NCBI RefSeq assembly: GCF_028641065.1
Contig: NC_073413.1
Span: forward strand, 10,044,001-10,108,000
DNA: 64,000 bases
Direction of reading: 5' to 3'
Source of the DNA: Leucoraja erinacea
Lineage: Eukaryota
The stretch's first letter is position 1. Every line of letters starts with the position of its first letter. Under the pieces are notes generated by a model, which did no database searches, was not told the origin of the DNA, and worked only from the letters and a program-made list of their open reading frames with translations. Below, piece after piece: positions 27,311-61,200 of the stretch. Position numbers and translations under genes: made by a program.

Positions 27311-29024
27311 GAACTCCTTTCTGTCCTTGCCCAATCTACTAGCTGTTCCTACGTCTATCAAATTCTGAACCCTGAAGAACAGAGGCTCAGCTAAATAAAT
27401 AAAATAAAGCTTGGCATCAGAACTTCCCTCATTCCTGGTGCATTATGGTGAGTTACTGTGAGTGCATTACCGTGAGTTCATTTTAAATGATAGATGTAAA
27501 TCTATCATCTGCACATCTGATGGATGTATTAACCAAGAATTACAAAGCTGAGTCTCGTGCACATCCCCAAAGCAACTGCACCATCTGCTGAATGTTCCCT
27601 GTCATTGTAGCAGTATAATTGTCATGGGCATCGAGATACAGTGAATAAAATGAAGATCCCGGCACAAAATGTCACCTGTCTAATTCATTGTTCTTCATGT
27701 CCTGCAGAGATTCTGCCTGACCCGCTGAGTTACACCAGCACTTTGCTTTGTTTAAAAAAACAGCATCAGCAATTCCTTGTGTAGGAAGGAATTACAGATG
27801 CTGGTTTAAGCCGAAGATAGACACAAAAATGGTGGAGTAACTCAGCGGGACATGCACCATCTCTGGATAGAAGAAATGGGGTGACGTTTTGGGTCAAGAC
27901 CCTTCTTCAAAATATTATTTTGGCAATATAATTTCCCAAATTACTCATTATTCATTCTATCAAATGTCTCTGAAGAAGGGTCTCGACCCTAAAATGTCAA
28001 CCCATTCCTTCTCTGCAGATTGCTTCCTCTATCTCTGTCCCTCCCCCACCTTAGTTCTCCAACTAGTTTCACTGCCCCCCTGATTAATTTTAATGTTTGT
28101 ACGCCTCGTTGTCACCTTCCCTCAGCCAACAGTGAACCATTCCACATTCCCTTGAACATCGTCTGCTTTAATCTGCCGTTTTCACACCTTACCCTTCCAT
28201 ATCTATAGATTTCCCTCATCCCTGAGTCTGTCTGAAGGTCTCGACCCGAAATGTCACCCATTCCTTCTCTCCAGAGATGCTGCCTGCCCCGCTGAGTTAC
28301 TCCAGCATTTTGTGTCTACCTTTTTGAAATGTTTGCCTGAAGAAGGCTCCCAACGCAAAACGTCATCCATCCTTTTTCTCCAGGGATACTGCCTGACCCG
28401 CTGATTACCTCCACTCTTTGTGTTTATCTTCAGTATAAACCTGAATTTGCAGTTCTTTGCTAACTTTTTTTAATTGACTTAGTATCCACAAGTTAGCCAA
28501 TAGCCCCATCTGCAGTGCAGTGTGATTATTGGCAGCGTCAGATAGCTACATCAACCACACCAAAGGTTATGAATTTCCAGGGACTTGGAACGGAATACTT
28601 TGTCACATGTGAAACGACACAGTCAAATTCTTCGCTTGCATGCCCAAGGTATACAAATAGTTGCCCATAAACAGTGCTGGCAAAGTTACAAAACATCCCA
28701 CGCTGTCTCCTCCTTTGTTCTCCCCCCCCCCCCTCCCCCCCCCCTCCGGCCCCCCCCCCACGTCTAGTCCTCTATTGCTCATTGTTCCCCTTCCCCCCTC
28801 ATGGCCCTGCCGCACCCCCCCACTCCAGGTCCTCCAGTGTTCTACCCCCACTCCCCCTCAGGGCGTTTCACCCACCGCCCTCATCAACCGCGGGTCTCGT
28901 GAGGCTCCACCGCTGCCGAGAGACCGCCATGAGACGCCACCGCCACGAGACGCCACCGCCATGAGACGCCACCGCCGTCACGAGGCTCCACCGCCTCCGA
29001 GGCCCCTCTGCTGCGACGCTTCTT

Positions 29025-29638
29025 CTATTCTTGCTATTGAGGGAGTGCAGCGTAGGTTTACAAAGTTAATTCCCGGGATGGCGGGACTGTCATATGCTGA
29101 GAGAATGGAGCAGCTGGGCCTGTACACTCTGGAGTTTAGAAGGATGAGAGGAGATCTCATTGAAACATATAAGATTGTTAAGGGTTTGGACACGCTAGAG
29201 GCAGGAAACATGTTCCCGATGTTGGGGGAGTCCAGAACCAGGGGCCACAGTTTAAGAATAAGAGTAAGCCATTTAGAACGGAGACGAGGAAACACTTTTT
29301 CCTCACAGAGAGTGGTGAATCTGTGGAATTCTCTGCCTCAGGGGGCAGTGGAGGCACGTTCTCTGGATACTTTCAAGAGAGAGCTAGATAGGGCTCTTAA
29401 AAATAGCGGTCAGGGGATATGGGGAGAAGGCAGGAACGGGGTACTGATTGGGGATGATGAGCCATGATCACATTGAATGCTCCGCTATTTTTAAGAGCCC
29501 TATCTAGCTCTCTCTTGAAAGCATCCAGAGAACCTGCCTCCACCGCCCTCTGAGGCAGTGAATTCCACAGACTCACCAGTCTCTGTGAGAAAAACTGTTT
29601 CCTCGTCTCCGTTCTAAATGGCTTACTCCGTATTCTTA
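29025..29638 (+). mobile_element. CR1 fragment followed by an inverted CR1 fragment
   Basis: [18 protein letters not shown]..; 29482-29638 is approximately the reverse complement of 29252-29409. Confidence 0.82.
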
Positions 29639-52254: not shown

Positions 52255-55200
52255 TTAACCTGAACCTTAAATTGAAAATGAAACCATAGGTTTTTTGGAT
52301 GGAATCTTGTACGTTAACTTCTTTAAGCTATTTGAAAGAATAGCCAACATGGTAGGAATGTAACATTGGCATTTTAGAACTATTCACTGGATGGTCAGCC
52401 ATTTCCCCTCTTGATTGTAACTGAGCTGGGTTGATGGACCAAAGTGAAAGTGAACTCGTAAACATTAAATGTCTGGCGATTTCTAAATGTGTTCTTTTCA
52501 AGTGGCAGACACCTGCATTAGTGACCATGTCCCAAATGAATCTGTGAGAAATAGGCATGCAGATTATAGATATCCAGTTTTCAACTTGATTCTCTGCTAA
52601 ATTCTGCCCTTGACTGAGTAAGTCAAGTCACTTTTATTTCTATAGCACATTTAAAAAACAACTCTCGTTGGCCAAAGTGCTTTACATTGGTGGAGGTACT
52701 AACGTTATACAACAGTGGTTCATGGATTAAATATAAACATTACTACATACATATAGCCCTCGCTCGGAGGACGTCAATAAAGGCTTGGGAGTAGAGATGA
52801 GTTTTAGGTCTCGACTTAAATGAGTCGATGGAGGGGGCAGTTCCGATGGGAAGAGGGATGCTGTTCCATAGTCTAGGAGCTGCAACCGTAAAGGCGCGGT
52901 CGCCCCTGAGCTTATGCCTAGACCGCGGGATGCGCAGTAACCCCAAGTCGAACGATCTGAGGGACCTGGAGGTGGTGTGGTGGGTAAACAGACTTTTGAT
53001 GTAGGTGGGGACAAGCCCGTTAAGGGCTTTGTAGACATAAAGGAGGATCTTGATATTTATTCGGAACCACACGGAGCCAGTGGAGAGAGGCCAGGATCGG
53101 GGTGATGTGACACGTCTGAAGCTTTGAGCCAAGAGTGAGGGGGTGATAGTGGAAGGTGGGGTTATGATGTAACTATTTGCCCTCGTTGCCAGGTGTTGAT
53201 TAGTTTAGGTCTGGGTATATTATTTGCAAGAGTAGTTTAACACTTATTGTTTCCCCAGGTAGATTTTGAGCAGTATCTCCAGCCCAGTTTGAGTGCTCAC
53301 GACCAGCCAGAAGCAATGCAGTCTTCATTCCATAATGGTGTTAAGTCTAGTTGCCCCCAAGAAAGCTCGACAGGTGACATTGAGCTACCAGAGGAAGAAA
53401 CGCAATCTTCAGTGCAAGATGTGGAAATGACGAGTCCTGTGTGTGAGCAACCTTCGACTAGCACCCACACAACATCGCTGGGGGAGTTGCAATTGACCAG
53501 TCATTCAGGTACACTGAATTTTGTTCGTGCATGTAACACCTTGATTTTACTTCGGAGTCACGTGAGTGACTACGTGAAGAACCCACCCAGCGCGCAGGCG
53601 CGGCATTACGTCAGCAGTGCAACAGCGGCAGCAGCTCGAGCCAGGCTCTCCAGCTGCAGCATAAAGACGGGACCTCAGGTAAGTGTCTTTTTCGTTACAG
53701 AGTCGCGCTAGAGAGAATAATGGCCTCTCGCAAGCGACCAGCCAGGAGGACTGCCTGCCCTACTCCACCCGAGGACGGGTCCATAGCGGGACGGCAGCCT
53801 CTCGCAGCGGAGGAGCTTTTTCAACGCTCCCGCTCACCCGACACCGAGCCGCCCCCAGTGCTGCAGATCTCAACGCCCCGCACAGGGAGGAAGGCGACAC
53901 AGAAAACCGACTGGCCGGTGTCCTCCGATGATTCGGAGGAACGGGAACACTCTCCCCCACCGAAAAGGGGAGACGCTCGGATAAGCTGCATGAGGCAGCT
54001 CCTCGAGCGTATGATCAATGAGGAGATGCGGCATCTCCCAGGAGGACGGGCTTTGGCCTCCTCCTCTCCACACCCTTCTGTACCCTCTATATTCGAGGGC
54101 AGTAAGGGAGGCCAGGACTGGGCTGGCCTATCCCAAGGGCAGGCGGAGGATATCGTCAGCATGCCGGGCGTGCCGGAAGAAGAGCTACTGGGTGTAGTGG
54201 GCCGATATGCGGCACCACCAACAACTGGGATGGTGTTGCCACCCAGAATGGCGGCAACTATAAACTGGCTGTCCAACAACCCGCTGCAGGACAAGGCTGT
54301 CCAGCAGGCCCTTGACAACTACATCGCGCCCGAAAATTGCGAGGCGCTGAGGGTCAAGACGGTAAATGGGCAGATCTGGAACCAGCTGGGGCAGCACATA
54401 AGGGCTCAGGAGGTCAAAATGCAGCGAGTCCTGAAGCTCCACTCAGCAGCCGTCACCGCCTTTGCTCGGTCCGTTGGGGATGAAGACTTGACCATACCCC
54501 AGCAGGATGCCCTCGCACTGATGTGCAGCACCACGTATGAGCTAAACAACCTACGGCGGGACAACATCAGGCCTGCCCTCAACCCAACGTATGCCGGCCT
54601 CTGTAAAGCTCCAGCGCCCGAACGACAGGCGCTGCTATTTGGTGCGGATCTGGCCAAAAGGCTCAAGGAGTTGGAAGAGGCGGCAAAACCAGTAGGCCTC
54701 ATGAGGGCAGGGCCAGGACCGAGCAGGGCGAAGACACCCAGTTGGCCGCACGCCTCGGCAGCCACCAGCAGATACCGAGCTGGTGAAAGCCTGGTGACCG
54801 CCTCCCACTACCCCCAGTGCTCTTTTTTAGAGCGGGGCCCAGGGCGGAGCCGTGGGAAGATGCGCCGCCCCACCGCAGCACCAACACGGACAACCTTGGG
54901 CCAGACCCACCGGAAACGACCCCACAAGTGAACATGGAGGTAGGTGGGTCTGGTTCCTGTCAACATACACAGACAAAGGGTGTAGTATTAACAGGGGGAC
55001 GTTTGAGGTTCTTCAAGCATGTTTGGTGCTCCCTTACTAACAATCAGTTTATACTCAACAGTATTAGTGGATACAAAATTGAGTTCAAACCAGGCGTAGA
55101 ACCGCCAGTTCAGCACATGCCCCAAAGGGTGTTCCTTCCCTCGGCAGTTGAGAAGGTAGAAGGACAAGCTGAACTTGATCGGCTCGTGGCTAAAGGCATC

Positions 55201-58200
55201 ATAGAAATGACCACACACGAGCCGCAAGAATTTGTATCAAATATTTTTCTCAAAACCAAAAAAGATGGTGGATGTCGCATTATTATTGATCTGACATCAC
55301 TCAATCAGTCTGTTGAGTATCAACATTTCAAAATGGAGACATTTGTCACTGCCAGACAACTGATCTCCAAGGGATACTACATGGCAAGCATAGATATCAA
55401 AGATGCTTACTATTTGGTACCCATTCATAAAGATTACTTTAAATATCTGAAATTTATCTGGAGGGGCCAGCTATGGCAGTACCGAGCTTTGCCCAATGGT
55501 TTAACGACAGCTCCCAGACTATTTACGAAAATTCTTAAAGTGGCCATGAAGAAATTGAGAGAACTAAAACATTTAGTAGTGGCCTATCTGGACGATGTTC
55601 TCATATTAGGAAGAACACGGGAACAAGCTGTCGCAGGAGTGTTAGCCACTAAACAACTCCTTGAAACTTTGGGTTTTATCCTCCACCCAGATAAATCAAT
55701 ATTGGAGCCTACTACTAACATGGATTACGTAGGCTTCACTATTGACACGATTCACATGACTGTCACTCTGCCCAGAAACAAAACAGTTTCACTCATTGAA
55801 GCTTGTAGCCATTTAATTGCCACACCACAACCTAGAATACGGCATGTAGCCAGAGTTATTGGCTCTATAGTAGCAGCATTTCCGGCTGCCCAACATGGGC
55901 CCTTGCATTATCAAAATTTACAAAGAGCAAGGACTCATGCATTACGCCTTCATAGGGGGCATTATGATCGCAAAATGGATTTACCCGCTGAAGCCAAATC
56001 AGAACTTCAGTGGTGGGTTGACAATATTTGGCACAGTCACAGTCCTATCACCGTAACCAATCCTAACATAACCATTGCAACGGATGCCAGTGCTTTAGGC
56101 TGGGGAGCTACTAACTCCAAAGACAGCACAGGTGGCAGATGGACTAACTCAGAGGCATCGCTACTACAATCACTGGGCATTAACTTTTTGGAAATGCTCG
56201 CCGCCTTTTATGGGCTAAAAGCATATGCATCTGGTATGCGACACGTGCATGTTAGAATTATGATCGACAACACTACGGCAGTATCTTATATCCAGCACAT
56301 GGGTGGCATTAAATCAGTATCATGCGACAAATTAACTGCTATAATCTGGCAATGGTGTGTCGACAGACATATTTGGCTATCAGCTGCCTATTTACCAGGC
56401 AAACTAAATTTAGTGGCGGACACCAGGTCACGAAAATTCAACGACAACATCGAGTGGATGTTGGACCCAAAATTATTTGCTAAAATTATCAAACAATATG
56501 GTACGCCAGATATAGATTTGTTTGCGTCTAGGTTAAATCACCAACTACCCATGTATGTGGCTTGGGAACCAGACCCAGAGGCAGCAGCGGTAGATGCCTT
56601 CACGCTGGACTGGGGAAATTTCTTTTTCTATGCTTTCCCTCCCTTCTGCCTCATCAGTCGGGTACTCCAGAAAATTCAGGCAGACTCAGCCTCTGGCATT
56701 CTGGTCGTGCCCGACTGGCCTACCCAACCATGGTTCCCAATGTTCCACGACATGGTGGTAGAGACACCAATGGTCCTTCAACACCACCCCCAATTATTGA
56801 CTCACCCGGTAACTGGCATTAGCCATCCATGCCACCAAAAATTGAAACTCCTGGTTTCCAGATTTTGAACAGGCCTTACCGGGGATTGGGGTTATCAGAC
56901 AGAACAATCACCACCATGTCGGCATCCCTGCGAGTTTCCACCAAGAAACAGTACCTGACCTTCATCAGGAAATGGGAACAGTACTGTCTGGACGCAGGGA
57001 CATCCTACACGACGACTTCGATCTCGGATGTGCTGGAGTTCCTGGCCCACCTGCACCATGACCTCAAGATGAGCTACAGTGCCATCAATACGGCTTGGAG
57101 CGCACTGTCCGCATACCTCATGCCGATAGAACAGCATAGTGTGGGATCCCACCCTCTAGTCATCAGACTCCTTAAGGGGATCTTTAATACCAAACCCCCT
57201 ACACCTAGATACACTCACATGTGGGATGTGAGTGTAGTTCTTACACACCTTCGAGGTTGGCCTCCGGTGGAATCCCTGAGCCTGGAACAGGCCACTTACA
57301 AAACCCTCATGCTCATGGCGCTTGTCTCAGCACAGAGGGTCCATTCGCTCCATCAGCTTAATCTGAACTACATGGTGACCACCCCAGATACCATTACTTT
57401 CACCATGCCGGGGTTGGTAAAACAAAGTAGACCAGGTACATCAAACTCCCCGTTGATCTTCCGGGCTTACCCTCCAGAACCTAGGCTGTGTGTGGTGACC
57501 CACCTTCATCATTACCTAGACACAACCCAAACGCTAAGAGGGAGAGAGAAAGCCTTATGGGTTAGCCACAGAAAGCCTTTTGGACGGGTAACCAGCCAAA
57601 CATTATCCAGATGGTTGAAACAGGTCCTCAGCATGGCAGGGATTAACACAAATGTTTTTAAATCCCATTCAACCAGGGCAGCGTCCACCTCAGCGGCGGA
57701 TAGGATGCAGGTTCCCCTCGACCACATCCTCAGAGCAGCGGGATGGTCAAGGGAATCGACATTCCAACGATTTTACAACAAACCGCTGATGGAACAGGAC
57801 GTCTTTGCGGATACCTTTTTAAAAACCGCAAAGTTATGATTTAAAGCCCATGGGAGCTATTTTGTTTTTTGTTATAGTTAATAAATATTTCTTTTATAAC
57901 TAAACAAACTTGTTGGTCTCTAGCTACCACTTCCTCCCTCGATGATCTTTCGGCAGTGAGTGATATAACTGTTACACGGTTTGAAATCACAGACCTTTGA
58001 AGTCTTCACGTAGTCACTCACGTGACTCCGAAGTAAAATAGTAAGATTAAACGAGTACTTACCAGTACGAAGTTTGATCTGTATTTTATGAGGAGTTACG
58101 ATGAGGGATTACGTGCCCTCCGCTCCCACCCTCATTATATAGATCAAATTCGGACTAATGTCTCGTTGGTCTTCACTATCTTTACTTCAACTAGTGTCTA

Positions 58201-61200
58201 TCTGTGATTCCACACCGCTGCTTGGAAGTATGCCGCGCCTGCGCGCTGGGTGGGTTCTTCACGTAATCCCTCATCGTAACTCCTCATAAAATACAGATCA
58301 AACTTCGTACTGGTAAGTACTCGTTTAATCTTACTATTTAGGAGTTTGCTCCTTTTAGTTGAGCGATAAGGTGTAGAAACAGGTCCTTCAGTCGGAGAGT
58401 GCTTCCCAGCTGGGTCAAACAGTGCAGTGCTGGGACTGTTCCCAGTGCCAACCAAACCTCCAAAACATATTCCACAGCAGTGACATTACATGAATGTCAG
58501 ATGCAGCAAACCTTGTGGCAGGGGCACAGATTGCCACGCAATTCCATTTTAATTTGACCCAGAAATTGTCACCAATAATCACACTAAGTAAGTACATATT
58601 ATTTATATAGCATGTTTAAATCACTCGCGTTGAAATGAAAGTGCTTTACATAAAATAATTACGTATTCGTACATCCATAGAAAAATATTAAAAAACATTT
58701 AATCTGAAACCCCTGACTTGCACTCCAGACTAATGAGTGAACCTCAAATTTAAAAAAAGTCTGCACGTCGGAGACAATTGCATTCACCCGCGTTCCTTCC
58801 TCTAGCTTAACAATTTTCACCTCTTCTCGCATTTTGTCTCATTGTCTCTGGCCCTTGTTCAATAATCTACCTGTCAAACACCACCACCCCCCCCCCCCCC
58901 CACCACAACCTGTATCCATGTATCACCTGTCAAGCCCTGTCATGCCCCCTCCTCTCCTCCACCACAATCAGTCTGAAGAAGATTCTCTAGAGTTGCTGCC
59001 TGACCCGCTCAGATACTCCAATGCTTTGTCTTTTACTGAAAAATTCAGATGCTGAATTATTAGAGATTGACGGCACTCTGCCTGAACTCGCTGAAGTTTA
59101 GGGGGGGGGGGGGGGGCCTCATTGCGACTTATGGAATCGTGAAAGGCCTGGATAGAGCGGATGTGGGGAGGATGTTTCCACTAGTGGGAGAGTCTCGGAC
59201 CAGAGGCCATACATGGCCCTCCCTTTAATATAATTTTGGAATACTGGTTACACATCTCCGATTCCTGCTTTGATGAGCCACTAGATGGTGCTAAATGTAA
59301 CAGGCAGAAGCCTGCTACCTTTTATAATAGACAAAAGTGCTGGAGAAACTCAGCAGGTGCAGCAGCATCTATGGAGCGAAGGAAATGGGCAACGTTTCAG
59401 GTCGAGACCTTGAAGGGTTTTGGCCTGAAACATTGCCTATTTCCTTCGCTCCATAGATGCTGTTGCACCCGCTGAGTTTCTCCAGCACTTTTGTCTACCT
59501 TTGATTTTCCAGCATCTGCAGTTCTTTCTTAAACCTTTTAAAATAGTGTTGTTTGTCTAAAGTGGATTGAAACTATTTTAACTATCTGACACAGAGACTC
59601 AGAATACAAGGACATGCCTTTAGAAAGATGAGGAGGAATTTCTCTAGTCAGAGGGTGACAATAAACTGACCTTGAGACCTTGAATTAATTGCCACAGACT
59701 GTTGTGAAGGTCAAGTCAATGGATATTTTTATGACAGAGATTGACAGATTCTTGATTACTAAGGATGTCAGGAGTTATGGGGAGAAAGGGGTTGAGAGTG
59801 AAAAATAGATCAGCCAAGATTAAATGGCAGAGTAGACTCATTGGAAGGGACTACAGATGCTGGTGTAAACCGAATGGCAGAGTTGACTTGATGGGCTGCA
59901 TGGCCTAATTAATTCTGCACCGAGTACATGATTTATGACTATATATTGGGCATCTGGGGCCTCGACTTCAGGGGTGCCCTTCAACCAGAAGTGCTTTGTG
60001 CCAAGTGAATTGACCAAGATGATAAACAAAGAGATTCTCTCTCTGTCCCCTCCCTTTAATATAATTTTAGAATACACATCTCAGATTCCTGCTTTGACTA
60101 GCCACCAGATGTCACTAAATGTAACAGGCAGAAACCTGCTGCCTTTTAAAATAGACAAAAATGCTGGAGAAACTCAGCGGGTGAGACAGCATCTATGGAG
60201 CGAAAAATAGTGGGTGAGGCAGCATCTAAGGATCGAAAGTCACCAATTCCTTTGCTCCATAGATGCTGCCTCACCTGCTGAGTTTCTCTAGCATTCTTGT
60301 CTATCTTTGATTTTCTTTCCAGCATCTGCAGTTATTTCTTAAACCTTTTAAAATAGTATTGTGTGCCTAAAGTGGATTGAAACTATTTTAACTATCTGAC
60401 ACAAATTAGCTGGTGACTTGGGATTGAAATATTTTCTTTGCTGTTCAGATTGTTCTGATTTGCATTTGCTTCCTCCCCCAGGTCTGCTGACTCTCAATTC
60501 CCCTCCCACCACACTTGTTCAAACTACTCCTTGTTCAAATTCTATGGGTGATGTGTTGGCTAAAGCAACTGCTGTCCATAAAATGGTAAGGAAAGAACAG
60601 CTTCCATAATTACTAATTCTATATTCTTTTCTTGTTGTATGACTGCAGAAACCAAATTTCGTTTGAACTTCAAATTACAATAAATGGGTATTGTATTGTA
60701 AATGTGTATTTGTATTGTATATGCAATTGTCTCTGTTCGTATCCTAGATGTTCAGCAGGCAACTTGATTTTCAGGCCTCTCCCCTATCCAGTTTGGAATT
60801 ATCCAGTCCATTGTTGTTTATTATTATTATTTTCAGCTGTATTTGTGAAGCTGTGGTTATAACAAGTTGTGACTTTCCAGGGTTATGAAACCAAGATGGC
60901 CTGATGGAGATGAGATACAAAATGCCCGTAACGTAACCAAATTATGCAACGGGCTCAAGGATCAAGTGCTATTCGTATTTCTACTCCGTCCTGAACAACC
61001 CACTTTGTAAACCAATGCCAGAGGAACTCAGCGGGTCAGGCAGCATCTGGGGAGGAAATGGACAGGTGATGTTTTGGGGTTGGGATCTAATGGAGGATCC
61101 CAGCCTGAGACATTACATGTTCATACCTTCCCTGACTATTGCCTGACCTCCTGTGTTTCTCCAGCACTTTGCACTGTTTGAGATTGCAGCATCTGCATTC

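Follow-up and report, generated by a model that had tools for sequence, protein, structure and literature searches.

The window analysed here is a stretch of 64,000 nucleotides from the genome of the little skate Leucoraja erinacea (contig NC_073413.1, positions 10,044,001 to 10,108,000), and all positions below are counted from its first letter. It carries exons of the gene DLGAP5 and, beginning 35 nt into one of its introns and lying in sense orientation, a retrotransposon of the DIRS1-like type (Table 1). Peptides of the exons match DLGAP5 chains of the PDB (E 4.9e-10; E 0.018), and show a weak match to the Pfam family GKAP that stays under the cut-off (E 0.0044). Four of the 24 sequencing runs listed were aligned to positions 53150-58620, with the organisms coded as A and B. 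None of the runs listed is recorded as RNA; one of them, X5, was handled as RNA since it has a 2,722-nt contig confined to the host exon. This contig aligns to 53256-53510 only, which places the splice donor at 53508/53509 (a slash marks a cut or joint throughout) and the element in the intron. The location inside DLGAP5 given by the first-pass annotation is thus borne out. We read the insertion as a young and structurally complete DIRS1-like copy, which would probably produce Gag-Pol by ribosomal frameshifting and a fusion of Gag with its tyrosine recombinase (YR) by frameshifting combined with the splicing out of pol.

The three open reading frames (ORFs) of the element, a gag-like ORF1, pol and YR, all lie uninterrupted on the plus strand. 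In pol, RVT_1 is the sole Pfam match (E 1.6e-18), with no protease or DDE integrase, and YR matches Phage_integrase (PF00589, E 2.5e-7, 31.1 bits for a cut-off of 27.1). The residues D154, D220 and D221 of the reverse transcriptase (RT) and D384, E420, D445 and D496 of the RNase H (RH) show no change in any of the 119 aligned homologues, while R172, H282, R285, W308 and Y318 of the recombinase are retained in 111-114 of 112-115. The Pfam family Dam (PF05869) is matched by 22 of the 36 aligned pol members; the window pol alone has no Dam match at E 0.01, and shares the DLFAS and FPPF columns with these members. Most related loci possess, upstream of pol, a homologous ORF that is the counterpart of the 403-aa ORF1. 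No Pfam family, LAP2alpha included, is matched by ORF1 at E 0.1, and its role as gag therefore rests on position; a low-rank look-alike in the atlas (score 0.90, 21% of members) carries PF11560.

At the level of the termini, the whole 113-nt internal complementary region (ICR, 58003-58115) is the reverse complement of a junction between the right and left ends in which one ATTT is shared. A circle-junction read shorter than 113 nt is indistinguishable from the ICR, and the same holds in short contigs. Two pairs of positions (58056/58319 and 58067/58308) vary within the family, and at both the terminus letters of the window copy stay complementary to its ICR, as predicted if the ends are copied from the ICR. 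Integration took place at a short NTT-type motif with no longer target duplication, ATTT being found once in the empty allele and at both ends of the filled one. Split direct repeats of the Ngaro/PAT-like kind were not found, in that no direct repeat above 18 nt has both copies within the element. The ORFs, the catalytic motifs and the complementarity of ICR and termini (37 and 80 nt), from which a DIRS1-like identity had been proposed, are all present; the inverted terminal repeat (ITR) core, the methyltransferase (MT)-like C-terminal end of pol and the roughly 145 nt (stop to stop) by which gag and pol overlap had been overlooked. The element has all the sequence-level features of DIRS1-like elements as defined in the available excerpt of PMC3266345. 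It is a new member of this group, and the insertion itself is ordinary; that it is both DIRS1-like and young we regard as almost certain.

The overlap between pol and YR is short (40 nt counted from the ATG at 56829, 46 nt from stop to stop), and the first-pass annotation had taken such short overlaps as a peculiarity of this element. According to section 10 of PMC3266345, in the part available, only half of the 28 annotated DIRS1-like elements have long ORF overlaps, and we rejected the short overlap as a novelty. The lack of a long overlap being ordinary, the question becomes how pol and YR are translated. This matters because the literature consulted gives no account of it for DIRS1-like elements.

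We compared the window with 87 related loci, comprising the best 80 of 560 confirmed ones (metagenome contigs), five genome contigs and two viral contigs, which together with the window form 61 families at 75% pol identity. Loci L082, with no FPPF match, and L087, too distant, were excluded from the relevant counts. The nearest named relative is XP_055488383.1 (P0190), also from little skate, with 68% YR identity and a position as sister of the window pol in the tree; it belongs to a different family and is an uncharacterised model in which a partial pol runs into a partial YR. The nearest relatives from outside skates show 58-60% identity. Apart from this one little-skate record the named YR matches are invertebrate, and the pol tree includes no bony-vertebrate DIRS sequence. 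Five loci (L081-L085) are DIRS-like sequences within contigs of bacterial metagenome-assembled genomes, most likely animal host DNA binned with the bacteria. Four further YR ORFs (P0178, P0179, P0182 and P0184) are 802-927 aa long with the recombinase at the C-terminus and no match to pol or gag upstream, and are probably of the long-overlap type.

Passage from gag into pol very probably takes place by -1 slippage of the ribosome at U UUU UUA, as the comparison of sequences suggests. The end of gag is overlapped by pol in the -1 frame at 44 of 58 loci, the others being three in-frame fusions and 11 loci that are otherwise arranged or broken. A slippery heptamer in the gag frame lies within the overlap in 33 of 36 families, while two controls of the same length give 4 of 36 each, and in the other two frames of the overlap it is found in 9/36 and 3/36 families. 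Counted by family, the heptamers are UUUUUUA (20), AAAAAAC (6), UUUUUUG (4), GGGUUUU (2) and UUUAAAC (1). Since AAAAAAC and UUUUUUG cannot be splice acceptors, such exchanges of one heptamer for another fit slippage and not an acceptor. In the window itself an X XXY YYZ heptamer stands in frame with the upstream ORF at 54823-54829, where the downstream ORF is open in -1.

The step from pol to YR, in turn, is probably made by a splice that removes pol and joins a donor on the gag side to YR. YR overlaps pol in the -1 frame at 48 of 48 loci. Of 42 families, 37 have a donor scoring at least 6 no more than 120 nt ahead of the GGRL motif, at pol phase 0 in 32 of these 37, whereas the controls give 38 of 519 pol windows and 27 of 220 gag windows; it lies 2-38 nt past the gag stop in all 23 families scored. 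On the acceptor side, the serine following FPPF is encoded by AGY in 27 of 30 families, compared with 393 of 1,657 other serine codons, and the YR frame is open from the AG of this serine in 20 of 21 families, opening exactly at TAG in six. In the clade of the window (support 1.0) the codon after FPPF is cysteine, the AG is lost and the YR frame is closed there; a new pyrimidine-led phase-0 CAG stands where YR conservation begins in 10 of 10 families. Taken together, a phase-0 donor and an in-frame acceptor occur in 28 of 33 families. Furthermore, the RefSeq model XP_072015819.1 from the brittle star Amphiura filiformis consists of Gag and YR without pol. Its joint KGE/PD corresponds to the homologous donor and acceptor of loci L012 and L013; aligned with L013, the model passes into the YR frame at the acceptor that was predicted. 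We observed moreover that gag and pol form a single ORF at five loci (L008, L012, L013, L029 and L061), with a phase-0 donor before GGRL in four of the five; in such fused loci splicing alone would yield Gag-YR.

Several points weigh against this scheme. The donor score and its cut-offs were devised by us and set after the data had been seen, five of the 33 families have no qualifying donor or acceptor, and on the tree the acceptor changed only once, so that the 2x2 tests overstate independence. The Amphiura sequence is a gene model only, and its layout is found in one of 17 long YR matches. A strong frameshift-stimulating hairpin in the window was considered and is unsupported (z +0.83 and +1.14), and over 33 families the mean z of the downstream RNA structure is only -0.66 relative to shuffles, for folds free of pseudoknots. 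The window also has ATGs of its own ahead of pol (54934) and in YR (56829 and 56917). As for RNA, the 54939/56862 joint is absent from the 15 joints listed, of 30, for the two RNA-type runs, at low depth, and from the raw reads that make up run X23, whose mean plus-strand depths in the bins are 7 and 12.5; the X5 contigs run unbroken over both predicted splice sites (54846-55776 and 56637-57009). X23 reads map at low depth to both strands of the element, the pattern that passive transcription of numerous intronic copies would give. With such depth and so many passively transcribed copies, the RNA runs are a weak test of the predicted splice. The spliced form of the YR start was found in none of the seven Logan YR cluster members (lengths 307, 324 and 336), which are ORF calls and likewise a weak test.

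Both pol and YR could instead be translated from AUGs of their own (54934 for pol, 56829 or 56917 for YR), either after re-initiation or on distinct subgenomic RNAs. Such RNAs could arise, for example, if the leader donor (53678) were spliced to UUUUUUAG or else to the YR acceptor. The ATG at 54934 indeed comes just 2 nt past the gag stop, the one at 56917 stands in a ACCACCATG context, the leader has a perfect donor, and a methionine lies 3-4 codons ahead of the tryptophan of the SWR motif in 16 of 34 families. Yet just 4 of 23 families show a leader donor scoring at least 7, none of them among the closest relatives scored, and it was rejected as a first exon shared family-wide; the YR frame has no methionine upstream of SWR in 8 of 34 families, and two of the heptamer types could not serve as acceptors. 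We hold independent initiation to be unlikely.

Alternatively, a second -1 frameshift could lead from pol into YR and give a Gag-Pol-YR read-through product, the splice-like motifs then being by-products. The constant -1 position of YR in an overlap with pol would suit it, as does the want of a spliced RNA among the joints listed, and the excerpted PMC13003380 cites Poulter and Butler 2015 for the proposal of such a frameshift at the RT/YR overlaps of Ngaro elements. A canonical heptamer in the pol frame is found in only 8 of 34 families, however, at scattered places, and is absent from the 43 nt available for it in the window; moreover the phase-0 donor past the gag stop and the AGY codon bias would be left unexplained. 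A second frameshift is accordingly judged improbable.

The element copia makes a Gag-only RNA by splicing, and the donor discussed here could likewise yield a Gag-only RNA or tune the Gag:Pol ratio, its in-frame join to YR being incidental. Its position just past the gag stop in every family scored speaks for this, since the majority of ribosomes translating the spliced RNA would produce Gag alone. Such a function has no need of phase, yet 32 of the 37 donors are in phase 0 and both classes of acceptor lie in the YR frame, and the Amphiura model continues into YR; this explanation appears very improbable.

Under the combined frameshift and splice, the element would work as follows. Shortened transcripts of such elements are reverse transcribed, their ends are rebuilt on the ICR, and recombination then inserts the resulting circle at a short motif that matches; here the tyrosine recombinase would have integrated the element at ATTT in the DLGAP5 intron without a true target duplication. 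A single RNA would give Gag (403 aa), and a -1 slip at 54823-54829 would put a minority of ribosomes in the pol frame. The unspliced RNA with the frameshift would then yield Gag-Pol of 1,049 aa, and the RNA lacking 54940-56861, with the same frameshift, a Gag-linker-YR protein of 732 aa. Splicing would in this manner stand in for the long dual-coding pol/YR overlap of the prototype DIRS-1.

We also lean, on comparative grounds, towards extending this scheme to a broad animal clade of DIRS1-like elements, in which one -1 frameshift would feed Gag-Pol and, after removal of a pol intron of 1.7-1.95 kb, Gag-recombinase. The acceptor would lie within the MT-like FPPF-S motif in most lineages and about 210 nt further downstream in that of the window. 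If true, this would explain why many DIRS elements have no long pol/YR overlap and why their YR ORF often has no start codon. The integrating enzyme would be a Gag fusion, with host splicing setting the Pol:YR ratio; conservation of the FPPF-S motif would partly reflect a splice acceptor, and ORF annotation would change. The comparison yields exact testable sites, namely the frameshift at 54823-54829 and the joint 54939/56862.

Table 1 Features of the retrotransposon and of the flanking DLGAP5 exons (positions in the window; sites described as predicted, proposed or probable are inferred from sequence)
Feature	Position	Strand	Remarks
Full DIRS1-like retrotransposon	53544..58339	+	4,796 nt including ATTT at each end; empty-site joint skips 4,792 nt
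ATTT target/junction motif	53544..53547; second copy 58336-58339	+	single copy in empty allele
Left terminus	53544..53580	+	37 nt, 100% complementary to left ICR
Left ITR core	53563..53606	+	44 nt, 95% complementary to 58230-58273
Leader donor-like site CAG/GTAAGT, perfect	53676..53684	+	in 5' leader; not conserved in relatives
gag-like ORF1	53720..54931	+	ATG 53720, stop 54931, 403 aa
Slippery heptamer U UUU UUA	54823..54829	+	gag frame, pol in -1 frame; probable -1 frameshift site
pol ORF	54934..56868	+	644 aa from first ATG 54934; frame open from 54787
pol domains	RT (Pfam) aa 109-270; RNase H D384-E420-D445-D496; MT-like C-terminus (DLFAS...FPPF)	+	
Predicted splice donor GAG/GTAGGT	54937..54945, cut 54939/54940	+	pol phase 0; 8 nt past gag stop
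Predicted intron	54940..56861	+	1,922 nt; takes out nearly all of pol
Pyrimidine tract and CAG, predicted acceptor	56846..56861, cut 56861/56862	+	phase 0 in YR frame
Tyrosine recombinase (YR) ORF	56823..57839	+	338 aa from stop to stop; in the -1 frame of pol
Proposed start of YR coding exon	56862	+	
Left ICR	58003..58039	+	37 nt, 100% complementary to 53544-53580
Right ICR	58036..58115	+	80 nt, 100% complementary to 58260-58339; shares AAAT with left ICR
Right terminus	58230..58339	+	ITR core 58230-58273; 58260-58339 pairs with right ICR
DLGAP5 exon upstream of insertion	53259..53508	+	donor CAG/GTACAC at 53508/53509; frame and phase fit 60482-60585
Probable next DLGAP5 exon	60482..60585	+	from splice signals and phase

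Among known systems, retroviruses use the same heptamers for -1 frameshifting, UUUUUUA in human immunodeficiency virus 1 and AAAAAAC in mouse mammary tumour virus and human T-lymphotropic virus. Spliced downstream genes are known as well, in retroviral env, gypsy ORF3 and foamy-virus pol, so that reaching a downstream ORF by splicing out pol has a retroviral likeness. Unlike in retroviruses, the predicted splice of the window lies downstream of the frameshift site, one frameshift would lead to two alternative partners, and the integrating enzyme is a tyrosine recombinase.

Within the DIRS group, the mollusc, cnidarian and crustacean elements LgDIRS1/3, AcaDIRS1/2, NveDIRS6b and DpuDIRS3 (Table 3 of PMC3266345, in excerpt) are especially close. 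Like the window element, the LgDIRS1/3-type elements have three ORFs, ITRs, two overlapping ICRs, ATT ends, no long overlap and a length of 4-6 kb, with ICRs near 38-45 and 82-89 nt compared with 37 and 80 in the window; the same excerpt gives no expression mechanism for them. DIRS-1 of Dictyostelium also has an ICR complementary to both ends, which is required; its proteins act in trans, its ends are rebuilt via the ICR and its cDNA is mostly linear and single-stranded, according to the portion of PMC7192593 available. The same portion gives it ITRs of about 316 bp and a long pol/YR overlap, compared with an ITR core of 44 nt and an overlap of 46 nt in the window. The DIRS-like families of Xenopus share a vertebrate host, RT/RH/MT, YR, ITR and ICR with our element, but all carry LAP2alpha in Gag, a domain family of which the window Gag, with no Pfam match, shows none, and have ITRs of about 120 bp and a YR of about 584 aa (PMC9210276, in excerpt). 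Ngaro elements resemble it in that their YR also lies in the -1 frame and overlaps only briefly, and differ by their split direct repeats, the absence of MT and the frameshift proposed into YR, where the evidence from the window points to splicing (excerpts of PMC13003380 and PMC3783388). DIRS elements have been reported in chondrichthyans (PMC4350176, in the part available). Literature searches brought up no paper that describes a slippery site or pol-removing splice for DIRS1-like elements, and Poulter and Goodwin 2005 or Poulter and Butler 2015 may already propose part of this scheme. What would be new here is the comparative case for a frameshift plus a splice.

The youth of the insertion, claimed earlier from the intact ORFs and matching ends, is supported by read mapping. 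In run X1 (organism A) an unbroken 1,005-nt contig of depth 20.1 joins 53543 to 58336, with four differences over 679 nt of flank, and run X3 (organism B) has the identical joint at depth 28.3. The empty site is thus present in both genomic-type runs aligned, from near-identical fish, the four letters of the joint fitting either side, which argues for a young insertion; it is about as old as the flank differences between these fish, and may either segregate within one species or be confined to one. That the filled allele is an assembly artefact, with a repeat copy misplaced into the DLGAP5 intron, is hardly credible: neither DNA run shows the filled site, and the assembly is not gap-free, with N gaps flanked by CA/GT microsatellites at about 1250-2070 and 8600-9070 elsewhere in the window, yet both ends sit exactly on the ATTT of the empty allele, as integration by a tyrosine recombinase predicts, and the copy carries private differences of its own.

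The window element is one copy of a high-copy DIRS1-like family with many related copies. A search for near-identical copies found a pol identical at 638 of 644 positions in Logan. Summed depth is 51,000-436,000 in bins within the ORFs and rises to as much as 1.7 million towards the ends, for 20-40 in the left flank; these sums are not copy numbers, and combined with numerous distinct loose ends seen at 53544 and 58338 they point to a large family. The window copy differs from the X5 contigs at 32 positions over 4,109 nt. In a separate comparison with X1, at least 11 positions, among 32 listed within the element, depart from at least 99% of X1 depth. Eight of these 11 are coding, five non-synonymous and three synonymous, and in YR two of them change an R, found in 107 of 115 homologues, to W and a Q, found in 111 of 115, to H. 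The recombinase of this copy may be weakened, and the copy is probably not the source element of the family. The earlier suggestion of possible activity therefore loses force for the window copy, given private changes at two conserved YR residues.

Between 57332 and 57359, five differences from the family majority fall within 28 nt, four of them synonymous, and this looks like a tract from another subfamily acquired by template switch, not like decay. Depth is several-fold to more than ten-fold above that of the element interior at 53516-53698 and 57908-58456, and 53 X23 reads leave the element at 53584, possibly reflecting many non-autonomous derivatives or sister families with common ends. 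Another 67 X23 reads have a run of T before 58194, which suggests antisense RNA ending or primed at a stretch rich in A that separates the ICR from the right terminus. Finally, an X1 contig links 58338 to 53544 with 34 letters between them, corresponding to two close tandem copies elsewhere in organism A.

For the host gene, the element brings the donors CAC/GTGAGT (53561/53562) and CAG/GTAAGT (53678/53679), 53 and 170 nt past the weaker host donor, and the reading frame of the DLGAP5 exon is open through to 53711. If either were used, the C-terminus of DLGAP5 would be frameshifted in carriers. As a young intronic copy, the insertion is at most a useful presence/absence marker. The window also holds short remnants at 52743-53204 (minus strand), 4503-4871 (minus strand), 28661-29467 (plus strand) and 59328-59497, among which are sequences resembling the 3' ends of what we take to be long interspersed nuclear elements and an 82-nt inverted pair resembling two presumed short interspersed nuclear elements.

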